Assembly (NCBI GenBank): GCA_046597055.1
Contig: JBKJLC010000033.1
Span: 1 to 12,384 of the forward strand
DNA length: 12,384 nt
Origin: Kofleriaceae bacterium
GTDB lineage: Bacteria; Myxococcota_A; Polyangia; Haliangiales; Haliangiaceae
Direction: 5' to 3'
Made by a program: the position numbers and the translations under genes. The stretch's first letter is position 1; the number at the start of each line of letters is the position of its first letter. Below the pieces are notes generated by a model. The model made no database searches, was not told where the DNA came from, and saw only the letters and a program-made list of their open reading frames with translations. Shown here in pieces: positions 1 through 12,384 of the stretch.

Positions 1-1
1 G

Positions 2-337
2 CAGTCGAAGCCACGCACGGGCCAGGTCTTCGTCACCCGCTACCACGCCGAGATCATCCGGTCACCGCGCCAGGCGCGTCACGCGCTCGCGTACGTGCTG
101 AACAACTGGCGCCGGCACCGCGAGGACCTCGCGGGGGTTGCGCAGCGACGTGCCCAGGTCGATCCGTACTCGAGCGGGATCCGGTTCGACGGCTGGAGCG
201 GCGTGGCCGCGCCGTTCGCGGCGCCCGCCGGCTACGAGCCGCTGCCGGTCGCGGCCGCGGCCAGCTGGATGCTGACCACCGGCTGGCGGCGACACGGGCC
301 GATTGGCCTGCGCGAGGTGCCCGGGCCCGTCGAGTGA
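2..337 (+). mobile_element. REP-associated tyrosine transposase (RAYT / Y1 HUH transposase), C-terminal part; 5' truncated by window edge
   Basis: Frame 2 is open from base 2: QSKPRTGQVFVTRYHAEIIRSPRQARHALAYVLNNWRRHRED...VDPYSSG. This fits the RAYT/Y1 pattern G-x-(V/L)-(F/W)-x-x-R-Y/F...Y-V-x-x-N (catalytic Tyr helix) and the downstream 'YSS' motif. The HUH motif would lie upstream of the window. Confidence 0.8.
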
Positions 338-706
338 TCAGGCCGGCGGGGCGAGCGCGGCGCGGATGGCGGCGAAGAAGGCGGGGCCGACCAGGGGCTT
401 CTGCAGCACGCCGCGGACGAGCGCGCTGGTCTGCGCGACCGCGACGACCTCGGTGCGCGGCAGGCCGCTCAGGAAGACCAGCGGGACCCGCAGCGCCTGG
501 GCCTCCATCGCCGCGAGCAGGCCGAGGCCGGTCATCGGGTACATGTCGACGTCCGAGATCACGAGGTCGAAGCTGCCCGTGACGAGCGCGGCGAGCGCCT
601 CCTCGCCACCGTGGACCGCGACCGCCTCGATGCCCATGACGCGCAGCTGCAGCGCGATCGACCGCGCGACCATCGGTTCGTCATCGACCACCAGGATCCT
701 TGTCAT
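338..706 (-). CDS. Single-domain response regulator (CheY-like receiver)
   Basis: 122 aa with RILVVDDE, the phospho-acceptor Asp in DLVISDVDM, PMTG, FLSG (Ser/Thr switch) and LQKP. No output domain. Confidence 0.9.
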   Translation of the reverse strand: MTRILVVDDEPMVARSIALQLRVMGIEAVAVHGGEEALAALVTGSFDLVISDVDMYPMTGLGLLAAMEAQALRVPLVFLSGLPRTEVVAVAQTSALVRGVLQKPLVGPAFFAAIRAALAPPA

Positions 707-810
707 TGCGCCGCCCCCCCGCGCGCATGATGCCTGACCGTCGGACGGATTTCACCCTGGCCGCGGATCGGACCCGCGTCGCATGGGCCCGAGATCGGCG
801 ACGTGGCAGG

Positions 811-1593
811 ATGACGCCGATGTCAGCTTCGAGGACGCTGGCCATGCGGCTCGGCCTGCCCATCCTGGTCGGCGCCGGGTTGCTGGCCGGCTGGTGGATC
901 GCCTGGGAGACCGGCCAGTTCCCGGTCGGCACCGTGCCCTCACCCGAGGCGGTCGCGCGCGGCTTCGTCACCGAGGCGAGCGCGGGCCGACTGACCACGG
1001 ACATCGTCGCGTCGCTCTATCGGGTCGGGTTCGGCTACGTCGGCGCGTGCGCGGCGGCGATCCCGCTCGGGTTGCTGCTCGGCCGCTCGCTGCGGTGGCG
1101 CGCCGCGCTGCTGCCGTGGATCAACTTCTTCCGGACCCTGTCGCCGATCGCCTGGATCCCGTTCGCCGCGATCTGGTTCGGCATCGGCGACCCGCCGGCG
1201 CTGTTCATCATCTTCATGGCGACCTTCTTCCAGGTCGTGCTGGCGACCGCCGGCGCCGCCGGCCAGGTGCCACGCATCTACTACCGGGTCGCCGAGGATC
1301 TGGGGATGGGCAAGGCCCAGATGCTGTTCCAGGTCACCCTGCCGGCGATCCTGCCCCAGCTCCTGGTCACGTTGCGGGTCGCGATCGGCGTGGCCTGGAT
1401 GGTCGTGGTCGCCGCCGAGATGCTCGGCATGAAGAGCGGCCTCGGCTTCCTCATCTCCGACGGGCGCAACGGGCTGCGGATGGATCTGGTCGTGGTCGCG
1501 ATGATCACGATCGGCGTGATCGGCGTCGCGCTCGACAGCCTGTTCGCGCGGCTGGCCCGGGCGCCGATGGTGCGCTGGGGCAGCGAGCGATGA
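811..1593 (+). CDS. ABC transporter permease, NitT/TauT (SsuC/TauC-like) family
   Basis: Multiple TM helices with P-SP-x-V, 'SLYRVGFG', 'RTLSPIAWIP', an EAA-like loop 'VAEDLGM', and 'WMVVVAAEML...SGLGFLI'. Start ATG 811 or 820 is more plausible than 700. Confidence 0.92.
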   Translation: MTPMSASRTLAMRLGLPILVGAGLLAGWWIAWETGQFPVGTVPSPEAVARGFVTEASAGRLTTDIVASLYRVGFGYVGACAAAIPLGLLLGRSLRWRAALLPWINFFRTLSPIAWIPFAAIWFGIGDPPALFIIFMATFFQVVLATAGAAGQVPRIYYRVAEDLGMGKAQMLFQVTLPAILPQLLVTLRVAIGVAWMVVVAAEMLGMKSGLGFLISDGRNGLRMDLVVVAMITIGVIGVALDSLFARLARAPMVRWGSER

Positions 1594-2306
1594 CCCCGGT
1601 CCTGCGCCTCGACGGGGTCGGCTTCGCGTACGGGCCGGTCGCGGTGCTCGCCACGATCGACCTCGAGGTCGCGCGTGGTGAGCTGCTGGCGTGCGTGGGC
1701 CCGTCGGGGTGCGGCAAGAGCACGCTGCTCGGGTTGCTCGGCGGCCACCTGCAGCCAACCCGCGGTCGAGTCGAGCGGCAGGGGCAGAGCCGGACCATCT
1801 ACCAGGAGGGCGGGCTCTACCCGTGGCTGACCGTCGCCGAGAACGTCGCGATCGGCGTGCCGCGAGGCGCCAGCCCGGTCGAGCGCGCCCGCAAGGTCGA
1901 CGCATGGCTGACGACCGCGAACCTCGCCAGCTTCCGCGATCACTATCCCCACGAGCTGTCGGGCGGCATGCGCCAGCGCGTCGAGATCGGGCGGGCCCTG
2001 GTCGCCGAGACCGACCTCCTGCTGCTCGACGAGCCGTTCAGCGCGCTCGACTACCAGACCCGCGTCCGCATGCGGCGCGAGCTGGCGACGACCCTGGCGA
2101 CCCGGCCGCGCACCGTCGTGCTGGTCACTCACGACATCGAGGAGGCCGTCCAGCTCGCCGATCGCATCGTCGTGCTGGGCGAGCGTCCCGCCTCGGTGCG
2201 CCGCACGCTCGAGCTGCCCGCCGGCGGCCGCCGTCCGCGCCTGCCCGCCGACCCCGGGGTCGCCGAGGCCGAGCAGCTCATCCTCGACGAGCTCGGGCTC
2301 ACGTAG
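1590..2306 (+). CDS. ABC transporter ATP-binding protein, NitT/TauT (SsuB/TauB-like) family
   Basis: Walker A GPSGCGKST, signature LSGGMRQR, Walker B LLLLDEPFSALD and H-loop VTHDIEEA. ATG at 1590 overlaps the permease stop (ATGA). Confidence 0.95.
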   Translation: MTPVLRLDGVGFAYGPVAVLATIDLEVARGELLACVGPSGCGKSTLLGLLGGHLQPTRGRVERQGQSRTIYQEGGLYPWLTVAENVAIGVPRGASPVERARKVDAWLTTANLASFRDHYPHELSGGMRQRVEIGRALVAETDLLLLDEPFSALDYQTRVRMRRELATTLATRPRTVVLVTHDIEEAVQLADRIVVLGERPASVRRTLELPAGGRRPRLPADPGVAEAEQLILDELGLT

Positions 2307-2322
2307 CAGCCGCGACCCGCGT

Positions 2323-3381
2323 GTGGATCGCTTCCACCACCCGTGCCACAGTCGCCGGGTGCGAGCGTTCTGGCTGCGGGTCGCGGCGATCACCACCGCG
2401 TTCCTGACCGTGCTGGCGGTCTTGCACCACCGGCCGTGGGTGGCCGGGCGCGCCTACGCCGCGCATGGCCAGCTCGACGTCGGCTTCTTGCCGGTGACCT
2501 GCCATCTCACCTGTCCGGTCACCGACTTCGCGACCCGGACCACGACCACCTCGACCCGCTTCCGGTCGCGGTCGTTTCCTGACTTTCCGACCGCGGTCGA
2601 GGCGCTCAAGAGCCGCAAGATCGAGGCGACGTTCCTGCTGGCGCCGCTGGCGATGGTATTGCGCGCGCAAGGGGTGCCGATCAAGATCGTCTACCTCGGC
2701 CACCGGGACGGCTCGACCGTGATGGTCCGCAAGGACTCGACCGCGCGTGACCTGCGCGACCTGCGCGGCAAGGTGTTCGCGCGGCCCAGCAAGTTCTCGA
2801 ACCAGTACCTCGTCATCACCAAGCTGATGGACGAGCAGGGCCTGGCGCCGGGCGACATCGAGTTCGTCGACCTGCCACCGTCCGACATGCCGTCGGCGCT
2901 CGCCAACGGCTCGATCGACGCCTACTTCGTCGGCGAGCCCCATGCGGCCAAGGCCGAGCTCAACGGCACCGGCCGCGTCCTCTATCACGCCAAGGACATC
3001 TGGCCCCGCTTCATCTCGTGCGTGCTGGTCGTGCGCGAGGAGCTGATCAACCAGAAGCCCGAGGTCGTGCGCGATCTGGTCCGCGGCATCGCCGAGTCGG
3101 GCGAGTGGGCCGAGCGCAACCGGCTACAGGCGGCCAAGGTCGGGGCGACCTACTACCACCAGGACCCGAAGCTGCTCGAGTACGTCCTGACCCACCCGGC
3201 CGACCGGGTCAGCTACCGCATGCTGACGCCGACCGACGAGGACCTGGGCGCGATCATGAAGTACGCGCTCAAGGCCGGCATCCTCGCGAAGCCGATCGAC
3301 CTCACCGAGCTGATCGACCGCCGCTTCATCCCGCTCGACATCCAGCCGGCCGCGATCGCCCCCGATCTGCCCGGGCTGTGA
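2323..3381 (+). CDS. ABC transporter substrate-binding protein, NitT/TauT (SsuA/NrtA-like)
   Basis: N-terminal hydrophobic segment, 'VGFLPVTCHLTCP', 'DLRGKVFARPSKFSNQY', 'SIDAYFVGEP' and 'SCVLVVR'. Third gene of the operon. Start is GTG 2323 or a later GTG (about 2359). Confidence 0.88.
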   Translation: MDRFHHPCHSRRVRAFWLRVAAITTAFLTVLAVLHHRPWVAGRAYAAHGQLDVGFLPVTCHLTCPVTDFATRTTTTSTRFRSRSFPDFPTAVEALKSRKIEATFLLAPLAMVLRAQGVPIKIVYLGHRDGSTVMVRKDSTARDLRDLRGKVFARPSKFSNQYLVITKLMDEQGLAPGDIEFVDLPPSDMPSALANGSIDAYFVGEPHAAKAELNGTGRVLYHAKDIWPRFISCVLVVREELINQKPEVVRDLVRGIAESGEWAERNRLQAAKVGATYYHQDPKLLEYVLTHPADRVSYRMLTPTDEDLGAIMKYALKAGILAKPIDLTELIDRRFIPLDIQPAAIAPDLPGL

Positions 3382-3404
3382 CCGCTCCGCTTCGCCCGGC
3401 TCAG
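3382..3404 (+). repeat. Dispersed intergenic repeat, copy 1 (REP-like)
   Basis: ccgctccgcttcgcccggctcag matches 12307-12329 at 20/23 positions. Confidence 0.5.
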
Positions 3405-3410
3405 ACTCGG

Positions 3411-3437
3411 GTTTCGCCGTTTCAGGACGGCGGCAAC
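3411..3437. terminator. Hairpin between convergent genes (possible bidirectional terminator)
   Basis: CGCCGT(3415-3420) and ACGGCG(3427-3432) form a stem, with GTT/AAC as outer pairs. It lies between two convergent stops. There is no long U tract. Confidence 0.45.
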
Positions 3438-4688
3438 TCAGGCGATCGACGCGACCACGCCGTCGCGGCGCGCGGTCTCGGCGGCGAACACCATGAGGTG
3501 GGTCTCCAGGCTCTCGGCGGGACCCGACCGGATCTTCGAGCGGTCGCCGGTCGCGATCGCGGCGACGAACTGCTCCATCAGGCGACCGTCGCCGCCGCCG
3601 TGGCCGGTCGCGATCGAGCCGTCGGACGCCTGATCGGTGCGGAACGTCTCGGTGCGATCGGTCAGGAAGTCGTGCACCTCGATGACGGTGCCGTTGCCGT
3701 ACAGCTCGCCGCGGGTGCCGAAGATGCGGGTCTCGCGATCGCGCTGGCGGGTGAACCCGGTCATCGTGAACGACGCGGTCGCGCCGCCCTCGAAGAGCAT
3801 GTTGACGACCTGGTGATCGACCACGTCGTTGTCGCTGGTGTAGACGCAGCGTCCGTACGGCCCGGTCCGCAGCGCCTCGGTGACCCCGGCCTCGGTCAGG
3901 TCGGACGTGAGCACGTCGACCGGCCAGCCGGTGTAGCCAGCGCGGACCCGGCCGAGGTAGATCCGGGGCGCCGAGTACGGGCAGCTCGGCTCGACCGCGC
4001 AGTCGAGGCAGCGATCGGCGGCCCCGGCCGGCTGCGCCTCGCGCCGGAAGTGCTTGAGGCCGCCGAACGACGACACCTTGAGGCATGCGCGGCCGACCAC
4101 GTGGCGAATCCAGTCGAGGTCGTGGCACGACTTGGCCAGCAGCATCGACGACGACCGCGCCTGGTTGCCCCAGTTGCCGCGCACGAACGAGTGGGCCTGG
4201 TGCCAGTAGCCGACCGGCTCGAGGTGGTCGAGGCTGACGATCTCACCGATGCGGCCGGCGTCGATCAGCGCCTTGACCCACTCGGTGTAGCGGGTGTAGC
4301 GCAGGACGTGACAGACCGCGAACATCACGCCGTTGCGCTCGGCCGCCGCGACGATCCGCCGGCACTCGTCGGCGCTCGGCGCCATCGGCTTCTCGAGCAG
4401 CAGGTGATAGCCGCGGTCGGCGAACGCGACCGCCGGCTCGGCGTGCTCGGTGTCCGGGGTCGCCAGGATCACGCCGTCGGCGAGCCGCGGGCGATCGAGC
4501 AGCTTGCGCCAGTCCGACGTGACGAGCGCGGGATCGATCGCGTGCTCGCGGGCGAGCCGGTCGCGGTAGAAGTCGCGCGGCTCGGCCACGCCGACGATCT
4601 TGACCGCGGCCGGGTTGGCGCGCGCGTACTCGGCGTAGATCGCGCCGCGGCTACCGGCGCCCACGACGATCAGTCGAACAGGAGGCAT
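3438..4688 (-). CDS. Gfo/Idh/MocA family NAD(P)-dependent oxidoreductase
   Basis: Rossmann motif VVGAGSRG, LLLEKPMA, VCHVLRY, HSFVRGNW, KSCHDLD and C-terminal GHGGGD. It carries a Cys-rich insert RCLDC...SCPYSA...YGRCVY. Confidence 0.93.
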   Translation of the reverse strand: MPPVRLIVVGAGSRGAIYAEYARANPAAVKIVGVAEPRDFYRDRLAREHAIDPALVTSDWRKLLDRPRLADGVILATPDTEHAEPAVAFADRGYHLLLEKPMAPSADECRRIVAAAERNGVMFAVCHVLRYTRYTEWVKALIDAGRIGEIVSLDHLEPVGYWHQAHSFVRGNWGNQARSSSMLLAKSCHDLDWIRHVVGRACLKVSSFGGLKHFRREAQPAGAADRCLDCAVEPSCPYSAPRIYLGRVRAGYTGWPVDVLTSDLTEAGVTEALRTGPYGRCVYTSDNDVVDHQVVNMLFEGGATASFTMTGFTRQRDRETRIFGTRGELYGNGTVIEVHDFLTDRTETFRTDQASDGSIATGHGGGDGRLMEQFVAAIATGDRSKIRSGPAESLETHLMVFAAETARRDGVVASIA

Positions 4689-4765
4689 CTCACCGTTCTA
4701 CCCGATCTCCTGGCAACGGCCGCACCGGCCGCGCCCGCTGGGAGCGCTGGTCGGGGCATGACCTT

Positions 4766-4801
4766 GGACGCAGGCGTCAGAACGCGGGCGTCAGGACGCG
4801 G
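4766..4801. repeat. About 2.5 imperfect copies of a 14-bp tandem repeat overlapping the kinase stop codon
   Basis: ggacgcaggcgtca / gaacgcgggcgtca / ggacgcgg. Confidence 0.55.
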
Positions 4802-6026
4802 ACAGCGCGGCCTTGAACTCGAGCGCGCTGCGCGGTCGGTCGGCCGGCGTCTTGGCAAGCGACCGGGAGATCATCGCGTCGAGCGCAGCCGGCAGGTCGC
4901 CGCGCATGACCCGCGGGATCGGCGCGGCCTCGGCGCAGTGCGCGAAGCCGATCGCGATCGCGTTCTCGCCGGAGAAGGGCGGCCGCCCGCACACCAGGTG
5001 ATAGGCGAGGGCGCCCAGCGAGTAGATGTCGCTGGCGGTGTCGACGCTCTTGCCGCGGATCTGCTCGGGCGACATGTAATGAGGCGTGCCCATCAGCATG
5101 CCGGTGGCGGTCATGCCGGCGCCGGCGGTGGCCTTGGCCAGGCCGAAGTCGATCAGCTTCACCGCGTTGCGCTCGCCGACCAGCACGTTCTGCGGCTTGA
5201 GGTCGCGGTGGATCACGCCAGCGTCGTGGGCGGCGGCCAGCCCGGTGCAGATCTGGCCGAGGTAGTCGAGGCAGTCGCTCATCGGGACCATGCCGCGGCT
5301 GGTGATCACCTCGGCCAGGGTGCGACCCGGGAAGTACTCCATCGACAGGTAGAGCAGCCCGGGCCGGGCCTCGCCCAGGTCGTGGATGCGAATCACGTTG
5401 GGCGAGCTGACCTTGCGGGCGGCCGCGGCCTCGCGGCGAAAGCGCTCGATCAGCGCGCCCTCGTCGGCCACGAAGCTGGCGGCGATGACCTTGACCGCGA
5501 CGGTGTCATCGAGCACCTCGTCGTGCGCGAGGTAGACCGCGCCCATGCCGCCGCGCCCGAGCAGGCGCTCGATGCGGTAGCGGTTGGCGAGGACCTCGCC
5601 CGGCGTCAGCCCGCCGAGCGACGGCGGCGGGCTGGACCGCATCACGGTCTGGGTGCGGTCGAGCGCGGGTGCGACCGCGGGCGCGGTCGCTGCGGTGGGA
5701 CGCACCGCGAGCGGCGCCGCCGGGGCCGCGAGCCCGGCCGGCGCCGGGATCACCGCCGACTCGAGCATCCGCCGCTCGTCGATCAGCCGGGACAGCTTCT
5801 GGTTCAGCTCGAAGTCGACGCCGCACACGATCGTCTCGAGGTTGGCGATCCGTTCGAGCAGCAGCTTGCGTTCGGGGTCGTCGGCGCCACGGCCCGCCGG
5901 CAGCTGGCGGCGCTCCTGCGCCGCGAGCTCGGCCCGGCGCTCGCGGTGGCGCAAGATCTCCCGGACGATCACCACGGGCGACCCGAACACGGCGAGGATC
6001 GCGATGATCGGGATCAGGGCTTCCAC
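4791..6026 (-). CDS. Hanks-type Ser/Thr protein kinase with N-terminal TM helix and coiled coil
   Basis: LGRGGMGAVY, VAVK, IHRDLKPQN, DFGLAK, GTPHYMSPEQ and SDIYSLG are all intact. GTG start; TM segment at about residues 4-21. Confidence 0.95.
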   Translation of the reverse strand: MEALIPIIAILAVFGSPVVIVREILRHRERRAELAAQERRQLPAGRGADDPERKLLLERIANLETIVCGVDFELNQKLSRLIDERRMLESAVIPAPAGLAAPAAPLAVRPTAATAPAVAPALDRTQTVMRSSPPPSLGGLTPGEVLANRYRIERLLGRGGMGAVYLAHDEVLDDTVAVKVIAASFVADEGALIERFRREAAAARKVSSPNVIRIHDLGEARPGLLYLSMEYFPGRTLAEVITSRGMVPMSDCLDYLGQICTGLAAAHDAGVIHRDLKPQNVLVGERNAVKLIDFGLAKATAGAGMTATGMLMGTPHYMSPEQIRGKSVDTASDIYSLGALAYHLVCGRPPFSGENAIAIGFAHCAEAAPIPRVMRGDLPAALDAMISRSLAKTPADRPRSALEFKAALSAS

Positions 6027-6040
6027 GGTCGCCGGTTGTA

Positions 6041-6973
6041 TCAGCCCAGGCGGGCGATGTCGTCGCTGCTCAGGCCGAACAGGTGCAGCAGCCGGTCGAG
6101 CCCGCCCGACGAGATCGCGGTGTCGGCGGTGGCGGCGACCTTGGGCTTGGCGTGGAACGCCACGCCGAAGCCGGCGCGCGCCAGCATCGGGAGATCGTTG
6201 GCGCCGTCGCCGACCGCCACCGTCGCCGCCGGCGCGATGCCGTGCGCGGCCGCGATCTGCGCCAGCAGCGCCGCCTTGCGCTCGGGCGTCACCACCGGAT
6301 CGATCAGCCGCCCGGTCAGCCGGCGGTCGACCCGCTCGAGCTGGTTGGCGAACGCGTCGTCGAGGCCGAGCGTGCGCTGGACCGCCGCGGTGCCGAAGGT
6401 GAAGCCGCCGCTGACGACCGCGGTGCGGCAGCCGAGCGCGCGCAAGGCGCGGACCAGCGCCGGCGCGCCCGGCATGATCGGCAGCCGGCCGGCCAGCTCC
6501 GCGAGCGCCTCGTCGGGCATCCCCGCGAGCAGCGCGACCCGGTAGCGCAGGCTCGACTCGAAGTCGAGCTCGCCCAGCATGGCGCGGCGGGTGACGTCGC
6601 TCACCTCGGGGCCGACCCCGTGCAGGCGGGCCAGCTCGTCGATGGTCTCGAGCTGGATCAGGGTCGAGTCCATGTCGAACACGACCAGGCGTGGGGCGCG
6701 CCGCTCGGGGGTGTCGGCGCGGACCGCGATGTCGATGCCGGCGCCGGCCGCGGTGAGCACCAGCCGGCGCAGCTCGCCGGCCGCGGCCCGGACCTCGCCG
6801 GTGACCTCGACGATCGCGGGCAGCTCGATCGCGGCCGCGGCCAGCCGGATCGGCGCGCCGACCGCGGCGCCCCGCCCGGCCAGCGCGTGCGCGATCGCGG
6901 CGAGCCGGGTGTCGTCGAGCGCCGCCGGATCGTCGGCGAGCGCCGTGATCGCGAAGGCGATCGAGGTGGTCAT
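6041..6973 (-). CDS. serB: Phosphoserine phosphatase (HAD family)
   Basis: HAD motif I FDMDSTLI, E-TIDELA, TRRAMLGELDFESSLRYRVALL, VSGGF, K, VGDGANDL and AFHAKP. Confidence 0.93.
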   Translation of the reverse strand: MTTSIAFAITALADDPAALDDTRLAAIAHALAGRGAAVGAPIRLAAAAIELPAIVEVTGEVRAAAGELRRLVLTAAGAGIDIAVRADTPERRAPRLVVFDMDSTLIQLETIDELARLHGVGPEVSDVTRRAMLGELDFESSLRYRVALLAGMPDEALAELAGRLPIMPGAPALVRALRALGCRTAVVSGGFTFGTAAVQRTLGLDDAFANQLERVDRRLTGRLIDPVVTPERKAALLAQIAAAHGIAPAATVAVGDGANDLPMLARAGFGVAFHAKPKVAATADTAISSGGLDRLLHLFGLSSDDIARLG

Positions 6974-7512
6974 GGCCGCGGCTGCAGCGCCGCCACCAGC
7001 TCGCCGTAGAGGCGTGCGCGCAGGCCGATCGGATCAGGGCCGCCGCCGCCCAGCGCAGGATCGACGACGATGTCGGCGAGCGTGTGGGCGAAGCCGTCGG
7101 GGACGAACAGGCGGTCCCAGCCGAGCGGGCGCGGCCCGCGCGGCTTGTCGACGATCTGGCCGCCGACCTCGCCGGTGAACAGCTCGACCTCGGCGTCGGC
7201 GCCGCGGCGCAGGGCCACGCACAGGTGCAGCCGCACCGGCGTCTCGCGCCAGTGGCGGGTGAACCGGATGTCGTTCTCGGAGTCGAGCTCGAGGCGCAGG
7301 CTCTTGCCGTCCATCGTGGTCAGGTCGCTGACCTCGGCGAAGCACGGGAACACGTCGGCGGCCAGCACCATGCCGCGCGCGCGCTGCGATGGATCGGGCG
7401 CGCTGGTCGAGTAGCCGGACGGCAGCCCGGCGATCGTCAGCTGCAGCGTGGGCGCGATCCGGGCCAGCTCGGCCGCGCGCGCGTCGTTGCCATCGAGGAA
7501 GTGGACGATCAC
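6970..7512 (-). CDS. Ham1/ITPase (non-canonical purine NTP pyrophosphatase)-fold protein with degenerate active site
   Basis: VHFLDGNDARAAE resembles F-x-TGN-x-x-K-x-x-E; PCFAEVSDL resembles P-x-x-x-EDSGL; FTGEVGGQIVDKPRG...LGWDRLFVPDGFAHTLAD resembles F-x-G-x-x-x-G-x-I...PRG...FGWDPIF-x-PDG...T-x-AE. Its stop overlaps the serB ATG (ATGA). Start is uncertain (GTG 7512 or ATG 7548). Confidence 0.75.
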   Translation of the reverse strand: MIVHFLDGNDARAAELARIAPTLQLTIAGLPSGYSTSAPDPSQRARGMVLAADVFPCFAEVSDLTTMDGKSLRLELDSENDIRFTRHWRETPVRLHLCVALRRGADAEVELFTGEVGGQIVDKPRGPRPLGWDRLFVPDGFAHTLADIVVDPALGGGGPDPIGLRARLYGELVAALQPRP

Positions 7513-7577
7513 CGCGGCGGAACCTACCACGCGGCTCCGGCTGGACATCGGCGGGAGCGGCGCCGATGATGCCGCCG

Positions 7578-8543
7578 ATGAGCTGGTCTCGTGTGGTGGT
7601 CGCGGCGGTCCTGGCGAGCGCGGCATGCAAGACGGCGGCGGCGCCCGCGCCGGCGACCGCCCCCGGGGAGCCCGCCGACGCGGTTCGCGAGGCGCGCTCG
7701 CTGGTCGAGGAGGCGTATCGCAACCTGCGCCGTGGTGACGCCGCCGGCATGACGCCGCTGCTCGCCACCGACGCGTTCCTGGTCGGGCCCGGGCCCGCCG
7801 AGGTCGGCCTCGAGCGCAGCGCCGCCGCGGTCACCGCGGGCGACGCGCTGTCGGTCACCGAGAAGAAGGGCGGCCACAAGCTGAAGTCGTCGCGGCTGGT
7901 GGCCGAGGCCGCGGCCGACGGACGCTCGGCGTGGATCACCGATCAGATCGAGCTCGACGGCCAGCCCTACGCCGTGGTCGCGCTGGCCGCCGAGGTCGAC
8001 GAGATCTGGGTGCTGACCGCGATCGAGGTCGCGCGCACGATCCCCGACGGCAAGCTCAAGCGGATGGCCGCCGAGGGTGGCCTGGCGCCGCTCGGCGAGC
8101 TGCCGGCGTGGACGCCCGGTGCCGGCCAGGCGGCCGGCAACCGCGCGCTCCCGTCCGGCGTGCTCGAGGCGTTCCTGGAAGCGGTCACCACGCCCGAGGC
8201 GCTGGTCGCGCAGCTCGGCAACCCGTCGCCGATCTTCGTCGGGGTCGCGCCGCGCGCGGTCGTGCGCGGCGCCACCGCGCTCGAGAAGCTCTGGATGCCG
8301 AAGCCGAAGACCAAGAAGCCCGCGCCGCGGTGGACGGTGGTCGACACGCTGGGCGGGGCCACCCCTGACGGCGCGCTGGCGTGGGTGCTCGCGCACGCGA
8401 CCCGCGATGGCGAGGCCCCGCAGCCGCGCCGGCTGTTCGCGATCTACCAGCGGGCGCCCGGCGACGGCGCGGCACCGGCCGCGTGGGAGCTGATGCTCCT
8501 GCACGAGGCCGCGCTGGCGGGCCCGGCCCCCGCGGCGCGGTAG
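7578..8543 (+). CDS. Putative lipoprotein, probably with tandem NTF2/SnoaL-like domains
   Basis: MSWSRVVVAAVLASAAC lipobox. Two similar halves, each with helix, 'F-L/V-V/G-G', 'AADGRSAWI' or 'TPDGALAWV', and a terminal W-x-L strand. Start ATG 7566, 7569 or 7578. Confidence 0.65.
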   Translation: MSWSRVVVAAVLASAACKTAAAPAPATAPGEPADAVREARSLVEEAYRNLRRGDAAGMTPLLATDAFLVGPGPAEVGLERSAAAVTAGDALSVTEKKGGHKLKSSRLVAEAAADGRSAWITDQIELDGQPYAVVALAAEVDEIWVLTAIEVARTIPDGKLKRMAAEGGLAPLGELPAWTPGAGQAAGNRALPSGVLEAFLEAVTTPEALVAQLGNPSPIFVGVAPRAVVRGATALEKLWMPKPKTKKPAPRWTVVDTLGGATPDGALAWVLAHATRDGEAPQPRRLFAIYQRAPGDGAAPAAWELMLLHEAALAGPAPAAR

Positions 8544-8557
8544 CGCCCCGCGCCGCG

Positions 8558-9499
8558 TCAGGGCGACGTCAGCGGGCGCGCCTCGCCGACCTCGAGGATC
8601 CACAGCTGCTCGGCCGGCAGGCGGTGCGCCGCCCACCACGCGCGCAGCCGCGCCGGCGGCTCGCCCACCGCCTCGTCGGTCAGGCGGAACGTGCCCCAGT
8701 GCATCGCCAGCAGGTGACGCGCGCCGAGCGCGCGAAACCCGGCGCCCGCGTCGTCGGGATCCATGTGCTGCGGCTCCATGAACCAGCGCGGCGCGTAGCC
8801 GCCGATCGGCAGCATCGCCCAGTCGATCGGCCCGAGCCGCTGGCCGATCTCGACGAAGTGATCGCCGGCCGCGGTGTCGCCGGCGTGGAACACCGCGCCC
8901 TCGGGGCCGCGCAGCAGGTACCCGCCCCACAGGCTCTGGTTGCGGGTCCACGGCATCCGCATCGACCAGTGCCGCGCCGGCGTCAGCGTGATCGTCACCG
9001 GGCCGACCTGGTGGGCCTGCCACCAGTCGAGCTCGATCACGTCGAGGCCGAGCCGGGCCAGGCGCGGTCCGTTGCCGACCGGCACCAGGTAGGTCGGGCC
9101 GGGGCCGATCCGGCGCAGCGTCGCCAGATCCATGTGGTCCATGTGGTCGTGGGTGACGCACACGAGGTCGAGCTTCGGCAGCGCCTCGAGCGCGACCCCG
9201 GGCGGCACCAGCCGCGGCACCACGCCCTGGATGCGCTGCGACCAGATCGGATCGATCGCGATCGCGAGGCCGCCCAGCCGCAGCACCCACGACGCGTGGC
9301 CGATCCAGCACGCGACCGGGTCGCCGCTGGCCAGCGCGGCGGCGCCGCCCGCGCGCACCGCCGGCCGCACGGCATCGAGCGCCGCGAAGTCGGGGGGCCG
9401 CGGCGCCCGGCGCCCCGGCAGCCGATCGAGCAGCTTCCAGCGCAGCACGTCGGCCGGGCCGCGTCGGGGACGGGTCGCGCGGTCGTCGAAGCGAGCCAT
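8558..9499 (-). CDS. MBL-fold metallo-hydrolase (NAPE-PLD/RomA-like, Lactamase_B_2)
   Basis: WIGHAS, IDPIWS, THDHMDH (HxHxDH), PARHWSMR, LWGGY, FHAGDT, LPIGGYAPRWFM..QHMDP and MHWGTFRL. Confidence 0.92.
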   Translation of the reverse strand: MARFDDRATRPRRGPADVLRWKLLDRLPGRRAPRPPDFAALDAVRPAVRAGGAAALASGDPVACWIGHASWVLRLGGLAIAIDPIWSQRIQGVVPRLVPPGVALEALPKLDLVCVTHDHMDHMDLATLRRIGPGPTYLVPVGNGPRLARLGLDVIELDWWQAHQVGPVTITLTPARHWSMRMPWTRNQSLWGGYLLRGPEGAVFHAGDTAAGDHFVEIGQRLGPIDWAMLPIGGYAPRWFMEPQHMDPDDAGAGFRALGARHLLAMHWGTFRLTDEAVGEPPARLRAWWAAHRLPAEQLWILEVGEARPLTSP

Positions 9500-9505
9500 C
9501 GCGCC

Positions 9506-9536
9506 AGTCTAACCGACGCGCGCGATCGGGTAGGAT
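9506..9536. promoter_or_regulatory. Divergent -10-like hexamers directly upstream of start codons (putative leaderless promoters)
   Basis: TAGACT (minus, 9511-9506) lies 6 nt before ATG 9499. TAGGAT (plus, 9531-9536) lies 5 nt before GTG 9542. No clear SD sequences. Confidence 0.5.
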
Positions 9537-9541
9537 GCGCC

Positions 9542-10147
9542 GTGGCCCGCCGCGTTCGATCCGCTGCGCTCGCCGCCGCGCTGGTCGGCGGTGGGTGGAT
9601 CACCGCGGCCTGCGTCCGTCGCCCGCCCGCGGCCGCGCCGGCCGCGCACCAGGCCCAGGTCGCCGGCGCCACGCCGGTGGTCGGTGGGTCGGCGCCGGCC
9701 GCGCTGCTGACCACCGCGACCGGCGCGCGCGTCGCGCTGGCCGACCTGTGGCAGGGCCGGTCGCAGGCGATCGTCGTCTTCTACCGGGGCTTTTATTGAC
9801 ACAGCTGCATCCGCTGGCTCGGTGAGCTGGCTCGTCAGGCCCCTCAGCTGTCGTCGCAGGGCGTCGTGATCCTCGCGATCGCCACCGACCCGGTGGAGGC
9901 GACCGCGAAGCTCCAGTCCAGGCTGCCCGGCGTGGTGTTGCTGACCGATCTCGATCCCGGGCTCGCGGCGGTGACCGCGTGGGGCCTGCGCGTCGGCGAC
10001 GCCGAGCACCCGTGGCCCGCGACGTTCCTCGTCGGGAGTGACGGCCTGGTTCGCTGGCGGCACCTCGGCGACGGTGCGGGTGATTGGCCGGCCCTCGCCG
10101 AGCTTGCCGCCGCGGTGCGCGGCGAACCGACAGCATCGCCTCGCTGA
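9542..10147 (+). CDS. Selenocysteine-containing AhpC/TSA (peroxiredoxin-like redoxin) lipoprotein, UxxC, 201 aa
   Basis: Single frame from GTG 9542 through in-frame TGA 9797-9799 to stop 10147: ...ITAAC (lipobox)...VVFYRGFY*HSCIRWLGEL...VILAIATD...LLTD...PATFLVGSDGLVRWRH. The TGA aligns with the first Cys of the FYRGxWCxxC motif and is followed by a SECIS-like hairpin. Confidence 0.9.
9813..9831 (+). promoter_or_regulatory. Bacterial SECIS element (putative)
   Basis: GCTGGCTC-GGT-GAGCTGGC forms an 8-bp stem (two G-U pairs) with a GGU apical loop starting after a 21-nt spacer from the UGA. Confidence 0.78.
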
Positions 10148-10247
10148 CACCGTGCGCGCGCATGAGGGCGTCAGCCCACATGCGATCTGCAACCCACATC
10201 GAGCTCGCACTGGACGCGCGCTTACCCATCCTGCAACGTGGAACGTG

Positions 10248-11426
10248 ATGGGGATTGGTCATCTGCTCGTGATGCTCGGCGCAACGGGGTTGTTCGCCTG
10301 CGTCGAACCCGGCGATTCGCTGGTCGATGACGACCTCGCGGTCGCCGCCGACCTCGATGCCGACGCGGGCGTGCCGGGGCCACTGACCATCGCGCGCACC
10401 TGCCATTCCGCGACGCTGCTGGCCTCTGGTGCGGTCCTGTTCGCCGGCGGCATGGATCGCGCGGTCGTGCACGCGTCGTCCGAGGTCTATCGCAACGGTG
10501 ACACCACGCCGACCGGCGCCATGCACCAGGCGCGCTGCGCACATCTCGCGACCCGGCTCCGGTCGGGTGCGGTGCTCGCCGTGGGCGGCCTTGGCGGCGG
10601 CGTCACCGCGCTGACCACGGCCGAGCTCTACGATCCCGCCACCGGCACCTGGGCGCGGACCGGCTCGACGCACGTCGCGCGCTGGGAGTTCACCGCGACC
10701 CTGCTTCCGTCGGGCAAGGTCCTCATCGTCGGCGGGATCTCCGACTGGAACAACGCGGCCCCGCGACCGCACGGCACCGCCGAGCTCTACGATCCCGCCA
10801 CCGGCACCTGGTCGCTCACGTCGCCCCTGAACATCGCGCGCCACGGCCACACCGCGACCTTGCTGGCGTCGGGTCGGGTCCTGGTGACCGGGGGCGTCGA
10901 TCCCGGCTACGCCCGGAGCCAGACCGCCGAGCTCTACGACCCGAGCACGGGCAAGTGGTCGATGACCGGCTCGATGGCGCACCGGCGTTCGCGCCACACC
11001 GCGACCATGCTGCCGTCCGGCAAGGTGCTGATCGCCACCCACGGCGGCCTCCGGCCGGCTGGCGAGTCGGCGAGCGCCGAGCTCTACGATCCCCGCACCG
11101 GCGCCTTCGCCGCCGCGGCGGTCCCGCTTCACCAGCACGTCAACGGCGTCGCCGCGGCGCTGCCCTCGGGCCACGTCCTCCTGGTCGGCGGCGGCGGTGC
11201 CTTCGACCAGGCCGGCTGGTGGACCGAGTTGCCGCTGGTCGACCGCTACGACCCGGCGACCGACCGGTGGACCGCGGTCGCGCCGCTCACCACCGGCCGC
11301 ACGTTTCACACCGTGACCGCGCTGGCGACCGGCCAGGTGGTCGTCTCCGGTGGCGGCAACGGCCTGGCGTCGGTGGAGATCTTCGATCCCGCGATGGAGA
11401 TGTGGTTGTCGTCGCCAGCGCCGTGA
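10248..11426 (+). CDS. Kelch-repeat beta-propeller lipoprotein
   Basis: MGIGHLLVMLGATGLFAC lipobox, then six to seven repeats of R-x-x-H-T-A-T-L-L-x-S-G-x-V-L-x-x-GG...AELYDP-x-T-G-x-W. Confidence 0.9.
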   Translation: MGIGHLLVMLGATGLFACVEPGDSLVDDDLAVAADLDADAGVPGPLTIARTCHSATLLASGAVLFAGGMDRAVVHASSEVYRNGDTTPTGAMHQARCAHLATRLRSGAVLAVGGLGGGVTALTTAELYDPATGTWARTGSTHVARWEFTATLLPSGKVLIVGGISDWNNAAPRPHGTAELYDPATGTWSLTSPLNIARHGHTATLLASGRVLVTGGVDPGYARSQTAELYDPSTGKWSMTGSMAHRRSRHTATMLPSGKVLIATHGGLRPAGESASAELYDPRTGAFAAAAVPLHQHVNGVAAALPSGHVLLVGGGGAFDQAGWWTELPLVDRYDPATDRWTAVAPLTTGRTFHTVTALATGQVVVSGGGNGLASVEIFDPAMEMWLSSPAP

Positions 11427-11438
11427 GGTCCTGACCGG

Positions 11439-12158
11439 TCACAGCCGCAGGGTCAGGCCGGCGGTGGCGCTGCGCTCGCCGAGCGGCATGACCTCGACGG
11501 TGACGTCAAGATCACGCGGCAGCCGGACGGTGAGGCCGGCGCCCGCGGTGAGGTGGTAGCGGTCGCTGCCGGTGACGTCGACCCCGCCGCGGCGCCAGGA
11601 CACCGGGCCGCCGAACCCGCGGGCGGCGGCGTAGGGCACCCAGCGGGTCGCGAGCGTCTTGCCGATCATCATGCCGCCGCGCAGGTCGAACGCCCGCCAC
11701 GATCGGGTCTCGCCGTCGTCGGCGGTGGCCCGGACCAGCGCGCCGCCCAGGCTGGCGCTGACGCCCACGAACGGCCGCCGGGCCCGCTCGTACACCGGCA
11801 GCCAGCTGACCGAGCCGCCGAGCGCGCCACCGCCGGCGAGGTCGCGGCCCTCGACCGAGCCGGCCACGACCGCGCCCAGGCTCACCGACCAGCCCAGCCG
11901 CGCGGTCGCGAACGCGCCGACCGTGACCGTGGTGGTCAGCTGCTCGACCTCGACCCGGTCGCCGTCGAACACGATCTGCGACGCGAAGCCGCCGACCGAG
12001 GCGCTCGCTTGCCACGATGCCGGCGCGCTGCCATCACACTCCGCGGGCAACCCGGTCGGACCGACCGGCGGAGACAGGCCTCAAGCCCGGGCGGTGTCGG
12101 CGCGCGCTGCGAGGAGCGCGGTGGCCGCAGCGGTGCTTGCCAGGATCGCGGTGCGCAT
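11439..12158 (-). CDS. Putative selenoprotein: signal peptide + Sec + outer-membrane beta-barrel, 239 aa
   Basis: ATG 12158 gives MRTAILASTAAATALLAARADTARA*GLSPPVGPTGLPAECDG..., in frame through TGA (12083-12081) with the 203-aa ORF 11439..12050. That ORF is made of amphipathic beta strands (LGWSVSLGAV, LGGSVSW, FVGVSASLG, FDLRGGMMIGK, VPYAAARGF, YHLTAGAGLTVRL, ATAGLTLRL). A strong hairpin follows the TGA. Confidence 0.75.
12039..12073 (-). promoter_or_regulatory. Bacterial SECIS element (putative)
   Basis: Minus strand reads UGA-ggccugu-CUCCG-CCGGUC-GGUCC-GACCGG-guugcccg-CGGAG. The upper stem is perfect, and the G-first apical loop follows an 18-19 nt spacer from the UGA. Confidence 0.72.
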
Positions 12159-12224
12159 CGCCGTCACTCTAACCGAGGAGCCGCTCGAGCAGGTCGGTGG
12201 CGCTCGCGATCGACACCGTCGTCA

Positions 12225-12329
12225 GGGAGTGTGAAGCATTCGCTTCCCACCCTCCCTTTCGATCGATCGCGGGCCGGAGCCCGCGCCCGATCTGTACGGA
12301 GCAGAGCCGCCTCGCTTCGCTCGGCTCAG
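12225..12329. repeat. Cluster of intergenic inverted repeats including REP-like copy 2 (12307-12329)
   Basis: gggagtgtgaagc-attc-gcttcccaccctccc (12225-12256); cgcgggc-cgga-gcccgcg (12268-12285); gagccg...cggctc (12304-12327). Confidence 0.5.
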
Positions 12330-12382
12330 GCCAGCGCGGCGATCAGCGGCAGGCCCCAGGCGATCCCGACGATGATCGAGAG
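12326..12382 (-). CDS. C-terminus of a membrane protein (5' truncated by window edge)
   Basis: ...LSIIVGIAWGLPLIAALA* is a hydrophobic helix with GC-rich third positions. Too short to assign a family. Confidence 0.6.
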   Translation of the reverse strand, partial: LSIIVGIAWGLPLIAALA

Positions 12383-12384
12383 CA

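Follow-up and report, generated by a model that had tools for sequence, protein, structure and literature searches.

To our knowledge, nearly every bacterial selenoprotein described so far is a soluble redox enzyme, and most come from anaerobes. A 2026 review of prokaryotic selenoproteomes counts 119 families in its Table 1, two of which are outer-membrane proteins, namely the GSU2204 MtrB/PioB-type barrel (NF041027) and the FCYXU-type TonB-dependent receptor (NF049945) (PMC13188914). Here, we describe a gene carried by a 12,384-nucleotide stretch of DNA (the window) from a Kofleriaceae bacterium of the class Polyangia (assembly GCA_046597055.1, contig JBKJLC010000033.1, positions 1 to 12,384). 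We consider it very probable that this is a working selenoprotein gene of a family outside current catalogues, combining a selenocysteine (Sec)-encoding UGA, a selenocysteine insertion sequence (SECIS) and an exported outer-membrane barrel endowed with a Sec/Cys pair; this appraisal concerns the gene and its product and leaves aside the chemistry of the arm that bears the pair, which is graded separately.

The ordinary list of open reading frames gives only a 203-residue frame with a TTG start (11439-12050, minus strand). By reading through an in-frame TGA at 12083-12081, the first-pass annotation had joined this frame to a leader starting at ATG 12158, which makes the TGA codon 26, and had counted a single Cys, C41. 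Re-reading of the DNA and of its translation returned the same positions and the same lone Cys, with 14 residues separating C41 from U26. Beyond codon 26, 213 sense codons lead to a TGA stop (11441-11439); as the gene's own stop is also TGA, the genetic code is not reassigned. The features of the locus are as follows:

11439..12158, minus strand: whole predicted selenoprotein gene, 239 codons with UGA26 as Sec, plus its own TGA stop (11441-11439); the read-through frame matches homologs over residues 1-239
12084..12158, minus strand: signal-like leader, codons 1-25, with MR, an Ala/Leu-rich core and RADTARA ending in A-x-A
12081..12083, minus strand: in-frame UGA, codon 26, predicted to be read as Sec; conserved TGA column, Cys in relatives
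12052..12068, minus strand: SECIS-type hairpin with a GGUCC apical loop (12062-12058) closed by a 6-bp stem (12068-12063 with 12057-12052)
12018..12083, minus strand: N-terminal arm of the putative mature protein, residues 26-47, Pro/Gly-rich, bearing Sec26 and Cys41
12036..12038, minus strand: codon of Cys41, the second chalcogen residue
11442..12017, minus strand: predicted beta-barrel domain, residues 48-239, C-terminus LTLRL, from the AlphaFold2 model and structure matches

Conservation of the UGA and its exchange with Cys

A protein database search with the read-through sequence returned 140 relatives, with record titles naming Kofleriaceae and Haliangiales and, for the more distant copies, other Polyangia. 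The best 93, at 40-99% identity, extend over no more than 88% of the query and begin just past the TGA column, because gene callers stopped at the TGA. More distant relatives, of 240-250 residues, are full length, and in an alignment of 27 of the 120 listed relatives, all 13 that reach the column have Cys at this place, together with a signal peptide and an A-x-A-C-G motif.

At the DNA level, a six-frame search covering the 147 genomes of this order recovered the gene from 79. Exactly one TGA is present in 76 of the 77 matches covering residue 26, the lone exception being a second copy in a genome that also holds a TGA copy (the order- and class-level search tallies and the selA tally given below include one unpublished genome, G037, without which each count shifts by one). 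When the DNA of 70 order-level loci was read, 66 showed leader, A-x-A, TGA and Gly in succession, three were cut off or started later, and one was a paralog. Two subgroups can be recognized from their patterns, U-G-x-[ST]-P-P-V-G-P-T-G-L-P-x-x-C-D-G and U-G-[IV]-G-A-P-V-G-P-T-G-C-E-G. Across the class, a profile search located the family in 81 of 401 genomes, spanning nine taxonomic families; the 40 loci retrieved from outside the order comprise 25 with TGA and 15 with TGC or TGT (Cys), all at the same column. The place of the TGA was checked by eye and by script in the 66 order-level loci and the 25 loci found elsewhere in the class, hence 91 loci from at least nine families, the barrels of which are only 26-69% identical to the window's protein.

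The family extends well into metagenomic collections, since a profile search of 1.84 billion cluster representatives (50% identity) retrieved 518 clusters at E <= 0.001, of which 326 at E <= 1e-30. Among the 150 best representatives, 35 were picked out by pattern as full-length Cys forms, having a leader, A-x-A-C-G and a second Cys, and most of the other 115 begin in or just past the arm, for instance with S-P-P-V-G-P-T-G or G-A-P-V-G-P-T-G-C. Such starts are what a gene caller makes at a TGA, and some may be fragments from contig ends. As most gene calls are cut at the UGA, public annotation misses both the signal peptide and Sec.

These data bear on the alternative that the TGA is a plain stop, whether in a pseudogene, between two genes or through an assembly error, or that the UGA is read as a residue other than Sec. 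In its favour, this genome uses TGA as a normal stop, including at the end of this gene; the unremarkable folding energy of the region and one homolog that may be such a case (L135), both discussed below, also speak for this explanation. Against it stand the retention of the TGA at one column in 91 loci with such divergent barrels, the Cys found there in relatives, and the fact that no start codon with a signal peptide follows the TGA. Moreover, the TGA is intact in contigs from four sequencing runs of two studies: those of three soil runs, all from one study, show 2-3 differences over ~860 nucleotides (nt), and an 817-nt contig of a sediment run of another study shows 34. Only the sediment run counts as independent, because the assembly may itself derive from the three soil runs.

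A covarying SECIS-type hairpin

Downstream of the UGA, at 12068-12052, lies CCGGUC-GGUCC-GACCGG, the upper stem of which begins 12 nt after the UGA and the apical loop after 18 nt. Taking the U of UGA as position 1, the stem joins positions 16-21 with 27-32, and the loop occupies 22-26. The perfect upper stem and the loop described by the first-pass annotation were thus recovered, with the reservation that its spacing of 18-19 nt fits the apical loop only. Its lower stem (CUCCG/CGGAG) fared otherwise: present in the window, it has each of its five positions paired in 9-23 of the 36 subgroup-1 sequences, and it was rejected as a part of the SECIS. Not being conserved, this lower stem is probably a chance feature of the sequence.

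The peptide P-V-G-P-T-G dictates four of the six stem pairs. Pairs 18-30 and 21-27 are free to vary, because both join synonymous third codon positions (Pro with Thr, and Val with Pro, respectively), and they covary. All six pairs are formed in 90 of the 91 TGA homologs. Over these 91 forms, pair 18-30 is CG in 43, GC in 33, GU in nine, UG in three, UA in two and unpaired in one, and pair 21-27 is CG in 84, UA in six and GC in one; both sides have changed in 31 (pair 18-30) and seven (pair 21-27) of the 66 order-level sequences. For these 66 loci, the covariation score was matched by none of 500 shuffles, a control that overstates significance for related sequences, while the paired cells amounted to 95.7%, versus 11-44% when the 3' arm was slid by 1-3 columns, a control that preserves relatedness. 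Where the peptide itself differs (P-P-A-G-S-A-G, P-V-G-P-A-G, P-V-G-P-M-G or S-T-A-D-G-L-S-A), the six pairs are still made, with other bases. The hairpin is therefore both conserved and covarying in TGA homologs.

The loop is equally constrained. It reads GGUCC in 85 of the 91 TGA forms (the variants being GGUUC, GGUCA, GGUCU and AGUUC), and G-U stands at loop positions 2-3 in every one of them. The Gly codon of the loop is GGU in 90/91, compared with 10.9% of the Gly codons elsewhere in the 66 genes. Among the Cys forms, 10 of 15 have at most four of the six pairs; the five that read C-G-V-S-T-A-D-G-L-S-A-C keep 5-6 pairs, with a free third loop base (C, C, U, G, G).

The hairpin was also compared with the bacterial SECIS (bSECIS) model shown in Fig. 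2 of the review cited above, which calls for a loop of 3-9 nt with a G in its first two positions, a stem of 4-16 bp, a distance of 16-37 nt separating the UGA and the loop, and a minimum free energy of at most -7.5 kcal/mol (PMC13188914). The window's hairpin falls within each of these bounds, having a loop of 5 nt that starts with GG, a stem of 6 bp, a spacing of 18 nt and a minimum free energy of -10.6 kcal/mol (17 nt) to -12.0 kcal/mol (24 nt). In the same genome, selD (L010, G000:C206) is itself a selenoprotein gene, encoding G-G-G-U-A-A-K, and its hairpin, GGACCU-GGUCC-AGGUCC, has an identical GGUCC loop, starting 26 nt past the UGA.

Selenocysteine machinery and its co-occurrence with the gene

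The Sec insertion machinery is encoded in this genome. Indeed, we found selA (539 bits), selB (307 bits), selD (301 bits; the gene contains an in-frame TGA of its own) and tRNA-Sec (70 bits), to which ARAGORN assigns the anticodon UCA. The selB frame is full length, at 630 residues, and encodes both winged-helix domains of SelB in addition to its GTPase and barrel domains.

Because 134 of the 147 genomes of the order have selA, co-occurrence at this level says little; the six genera devoid of selA have no copy of the barrel gene. Outside the order, in family f10, selA is present in 4/4 TGA-form versus 0/5 Cys-form genomes, the latter being 96-100% complete and all f10 genomes compared at least 96% complete. 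In family f14, one TGA-form genome also has selA. In family f12, the single TGA-form genome has selA, and the Cys-form genomes are mixed, with selA in two, a fragment in one and none in one.

The covariation of the hairpin, the fixation of the Gly codon as GGU only where the TGA is present, and a selA presence or absence that tracks the TGA or Cys form all add to the case against a plain stop, which we regard as close to refuted.

Predicted export and barrel fold

The leader, MRTAILASTAAATALLAARADTARA, starts at ATG 12158, ends in A-R-A and has a charged start, a hydrophobic core and an A-x-A motif. In the 91 TGA forms, Ala occupies -3 in 86 and -1 in 89, the residue at -2 is variable (E/H/R/D/K in 77), Pro often occurs near -6, and Gly is found at +2 in 89. 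From its sequence, the leader fits signal peptidase I rather than a lipobox, and a cut after A-x-A would let the mature protein start with Sec-Gly.

The same features have to be weighed for another explanation, in which signal peptidase II would cut the leader of a lipoprotein and the Sec/Cys would carry the lipid, giving a diacylglyceryl-selenocysteine on a barrel. Suggestive in this respect is a signal-like leader that has small residues at both -3 and -1 and is directly followed by Cys or Sec, and Gly at +2 is common in lipoproteins. A lipobox, however, has L/V/I at -3, a small uncharged residue at -2, G/A/S at -1 and Cys at +1, a pattern from which the 91 TGA forms depart by their Ala at -3 (86/91) and their charged-type residue at -2 (77/91). 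In addition, Pro near -6 and A-x-A suit signal peptidase I better, and lipidation is accordingly a very unlikely fate for this residue.

Regarding the remainder of the protein, AlphaFold2 gave a confident model, both with 68 relatives (predicted local distance difference test (pLDDT) 86.1, predicted template modelling score (pTM) 0.80) and with 98 mature-form sequences (pLDDT 93.3, pTM 0.85). Residues from 48 onwards form about ten long antiparallel strands in a closed sheet. Foldseek returned 46 matches at E <= 0.001, and those listed are outer-membrane barrels (FapF, NalP and other autotransporters, Pla/OmpT, OpcA and TodX), with E values of 6e-6 to 5e-4 for the small ones. Structure alignment with VIA-align gave the following matches:

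Designed 10-stranded membrane barrel: Z 15.9, 137 residues, root-mean-square deviation (rmsd) 2.4 A
Legionella Dot/Icm porin I: Z 15.1, 191 residues, rmsd 3.8 A
OmpT: Z 14.1; OpcA: Z 14.1
Autotransporter barrels: Z 10.9-12.5

VIA-align also finds soluble 8-10-stranded barrels, at Z 9-11. The C-terminal strand of outer-membrane barrels ends in an aromatic or hydrophobic residue; of the 98 members, 43 end with F, 40 with L, 10 with R and five with another residue, and the window's protein ends with L. Searching the ESM Atlas with a natural Cys-form homolog led only to unnamed 'hypothetical' clusters with weak outer-membrane-protein families, and two of the 68 relatives touch the autotransporter domain. 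The outer-membrane beta-barrel put forward by the first-pass annotation is thereby backed by a confident model and by structure matches, and an exported barrel of the outer-membrane type is, at the level of predicted structure, strongly supported.

The N-terminal arm and its possible chemistry

The 98 aligned non-redundant members have, by construction, Sec or Cys at position 1 of the mature form. Their second Cys is invariant (98/98) and stands 10 residues from position 1 in 53 members, 11-13 in 10 and 14 in 35, and 95 of the 98 contain exactly two Cys/Sec residues. An Asp or Glu follows the second Cys in 70/98. A strictly kept pair, Sec/Cys plus Cys, on a flexible N-terminal arm is thus strongly supported, and the arm would lie on the periplasmic side.

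In the mechanism that we propose, the ribosome would read UGA codon 26 as Sec, with SelB and Sec-tRNA(Sec) binding the hairpin (6-bp stem, GGUCC loop) that begins 12 nt downstream of the UGA; insertion of Sec at this codon by way of a SelB-type hairpin is strongly supported. The 25-residue leader would guide the chain through the Sec (secretory) translocon, and signal peptidase I would probably cut past A-x-A, leaving a mature start Sec-Gly. Residues 48-239 would then insert into the outer membrane as a barrel of about ten strands, and the first ~22 mature residues would form a flexible arm on the periplasmic side, with Sec1 and, 10-14 residues further on, the invariant Cys. Finally, Sec and Cys could form a reversible selenylsulfide, which would make the arm a redox group that swings at the barrel's periplasmic mouth. 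Sec might be favoured on such an arm because it is fast-reacting and recovers from over-oxidation in an oxidising compartment. We favour this redox role tentatively, short of calling it probable, ahead of metal binding and then of a covalent link.

Metal binding keeps the same gene and the same Sec insertion and proposes that the amine, selenolate, Cys thiolate and Asp/Glu of the arm hold a soft metal (Cu(I), Hg, Ni or Zn) at the periplasmic mouth of a small channel. The Asp/Glu following the second Cys in 70/98 members would be in keeping with such a site, as would the C-S-L-x-E-H-E-E that many Cys forms show from the second Cys; subgroup 1 is also His-rich before Sec (RAHTAHA), although these residues would be removed by a cut at A-x-A. 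There is precedent in the copper-efflux barrel PcoB, the disordered N-terminal domain of which is required for copper resistance according to the excerpted text of PMC12509749, and several of the bacterial selenoproteins catalogued in Table 1 of PMC13188914 are metal-related. Against this stand the varying spacing of the ligands (10-14 residues), the failure of Pfam and NCBIfam to detect a known metal-binding domain, and the lack of conserved metal-resistance or transport neighbours in the window and 12 other loci. A metal site appears rather unlikely, though only somewhat less likely than the redox role.

Two further proposals make use of the N-terminal residue itself. In the first, the mature N-terminal Sec/Cys-Gly would be covalently joined to a component of the envelope, e.g., to the meso-diaminopimelate of peptidoglycan via an LD-transpeptidase, with the 1,2-aminoselenol speeding up thioester capture. 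Such a capture would resemble native chemical ligation. Sec/Cys-Gly directly after A-x-A is the most conserved feature of the family, with Gly at +2 in 89/91, and LD-transpeptidases are described as joining barrel N-termini to meso-diaminopimelate, in Coxiella through an N-terminal Gly-Gly (PMC12729407, in the excerpt used here). The tethered barrels known so far nevertheless use Ala-Asp or Gly-Gly and not Cys, and such a tether leaves unexplained the invariant second Cys, which is lost along with Sec in the Gly/Gly paralog described below; we deem it improbable. In the second proposal, the N-terminal 1,2-aminoselenol would be the working group, capturing periplasmic thioester or acyl partners in the style of native chemical ligation (e.g., an LD-transpeptidase acyl-enzyme, which would fasten the outer membrane to peptidoglycan), and the Cys would mask Sec as a selenylsulfide until use. 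This is more speculative still, and slightly less probable in our view than the tether.

Phylogeny, novelty and points to be weighed

A quick maximum-likelihood tree was built from 98 rows with the Sec/Cys column removed, leaving out seven near-duplicates, the paralog and one incomplete locus. It requires two state changes, the Cys forms making up one group (support 81). In this clade, the Cys relatives of L135 (L130-L134) have 5-6 pairs, one of them with a compensatory change, and a third loop base that varies; the peptide S-T-A-D-G-L-S-A of the clade encodes a 6-bp hairpin at the same 16-32 position, which is either a fossil SECIS or a regained one.

Within the window's genus (g1), two genomes (G000, the present one, and G131) carry subgroup 1 and the others subgroup 2, with one copy each and ~35-40% identity between the two; this pattern suggests either replacement or an ancient duplication followed by alternative loss.

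As to novelty, NCBIfam in its June 2026 release, which includes models for catalogued families, gave no match to the read-through protein at E up to 1, and a small barrel with Sec at the signal-peptidase site is absent from the 119 families in Table 1 of PMC13188914. No literature on this family was found, in a search whose coverage leaves out most subscription journals and which is hence not proof of absence. The first-pass annotation, which had not recognised the family, was in this sense right to suspect a new one, as neither Pfam nor NCBIfam nor that table contains it.

Several observations weigh against our reading and have to be set beside the evidence above. Regarding the hairpin, the folding energy of the 59-nt region is ordinary for its G+C content when compared with shuffles (z = 0.06), and for this reason the argument against a chance hairpin draws on its conservation and covariation and not on stability. 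Likewise, an Rfam scan of 11400-12384 with E up to 10 returned no SECIS family and only two chance-level matches on the opposite strand. Regarding the machinery, three TGA-form genomes (G125, G056 and G136) gave no selA match; these are fragmented or incomplete metagenome-assembled genomes, two of them 78% and 82% complete and one 96% complete in 1,770 contigs. In the tree, the TGA form L135 (G421) lies inside the Cys group, as the sister of a Cys form (support 95). Given this position, its TGA may have arisen as a simple nonsense mutation, the other possibility being that Sec was regained by use of the retained hairpin.

Exceptions also occur at the Sec column. The first-pass annotation had regarded Trp, Arg or other non-Cys residues at this place as arguing against Sec, and the homologs have TGA or Cys there apart from two Ser forms among the 150 cluster representatives (P0141 and P0227) and one paralog. 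This paralog (L087, G046:C205), which resides in a genome with a TGA copy (L083), reads A-E-A-G-G-I-G-E-P-V-G-P-T-G-G-E-G and is the only intact copy without Sec or Cys, having Gly in the Sec column as well as in that of the partner Cys. Judging from its sequence, the two residues have been lost together, and the Sec/Cys pair is dispensable for the barrel itself, since the paralog has Gly/Gly. One of the two Ser forms retains P-V-G-P-T-G-C after the Ser.

Concerning export and fold, the putative start of the mature protein is placed by the A-x-A rule, and one homolog has Pro at -1. In the mature-form model, the mean pLDDT is low (54) for residues 1-10 and rises to 85 for residues 11-20. Pfam gave no match to the window's read-through protein at E up to 1, outer-membrane families included, and OMP_b-brl (PF13505) is weakly matched by three of 68 relatives, with a best E of 2.9e-6. 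Lastly, no neighbouring gene is conserved in the window and 12 long loci, the gene itself being the only one common to all 13. Gene neighbourhood in these loci therefore offers no functional hint and does not help to choose among the readings of the arm.

Genomic surroundings

In the window, the neighbours of the gene encode a Kelch-repeat protein, a HAD hydrolase, Ham1 and parts of an ABC transporter. The other clusters obtained from the neighbourhood comparison are shadow frames of the gene or are common to closely related genomes only.

A dispersed repeat of ~65 nt (window 12262-12332) lies between the stop of the upstream same-strand gene (~12327) and the start of the selenoprotein gene. 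It has at least 41 copies in the genome (40 of 160 candidates scored), 84-100% identical and several of them at contig ends, and the summed contig depth rises from 8-23 to 63-716 at this repeat. It looks like a repetitive extragenic palindromic (REP) element or a miniature inverted-repeat transposable element (MITE) containing a G+C-rich hairpin, and breaks in the assembly are probably due to it. Elsewhere in the window, an open frame of 1175 residues (3018-6545, plus strand) has no Pfam match and overlaps several long opposite-strand frames in G+C-rich DNA.

Significance and comparison with known systems

In this family, found in soil myxobacteria (class Polyangia), Sec would be carried by a small barrel of the outer membrane, and at a putative mature N-terminus, a position unrepresented in the 119 catalogued families. 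It also provides a natural series of Sec and Cys forms in one fold, including lineages that have lost selA and gone to Cys, which could be used to ask what advantage Sec has over Cys in the oxidising cell envelope. In addition, its compact and well-defined SECIS (six pairs and a GGUCC loop, encoded by P-V-G-P-T-G) is suited to reporter work.

Compared with established bacterial genes in which UGA encodes Sec, such as E. coli fdhF or, in this genome, selD, the locus has in common the UGA, a short hairpin at a suitable distance whose small apical loop contains G and U, the existence of Cys homologs and the dependence on selA, selB, selD and tRNA-Sec. It differs in that the predicted protein is a membrane barrel and not a soluble oxidoreductase, and in that Sec is found at a predicted signal-peptidase site instead of the UxxC/CxxU of a thioredoxin-like fold. 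An outer-membrane location has precedent in the GSU2204-family NF041027 and FCYXU-type NF049945 proteins, since both are presented as predicted outer-membrane beta-barrel selenoproteins in the catalogue (PMC13188914, Table 1). These are, however, large barrels of other families, whereas the window's protein would have its Sec at the predicted mature N-terminus, on an arm, with a distant Cys partner.

In terms of fold, the closest natural structures are small barrels of 10-12 strands. The omptins (OmpT/Pla), OpcA, the Legionella Dot/Icm porin I, the autotransporters and FapF are of the same fold class (porin, omptin and OpcA Z 14.1-15.1, over 180-191 residues, with rmsd 3.5-3.8 A), but sequence identity is 10-12% and Pfam gives no match to those families; this likeness is one of fold only and therefore carries no statement on function. 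For the arm, the nearest analogy is offered by eukaryotic Sec tails. The GCUG tail of thioredoxin reductase and the Cys-x13-Sec tail of selenoprotein S have a near-terminal Sec on a disordered arm, with a Cys partner and a selenylsulfide. These tails are C-terminal, cytosolic and without homology to the present family, and they are thus to be taken as a lead.

Among bacterial envelope proteins, PcoB comes closest in layout, as it is an outer-membrane barrel that follows a flexible N-terminal region with ligand residues (PMC12509749, PMC9210255, in the excerpts used here). The arm of PcoB is described there as long, poorly conserved and rich in His and Met, and its gene belongs to a copper operon. 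By contrast, the arm encoded in the window is short and strictly patterned, with Sec/Cys-Gly, 10-14 residues and then Cys-Asp/Glu, and its gene stands alone.

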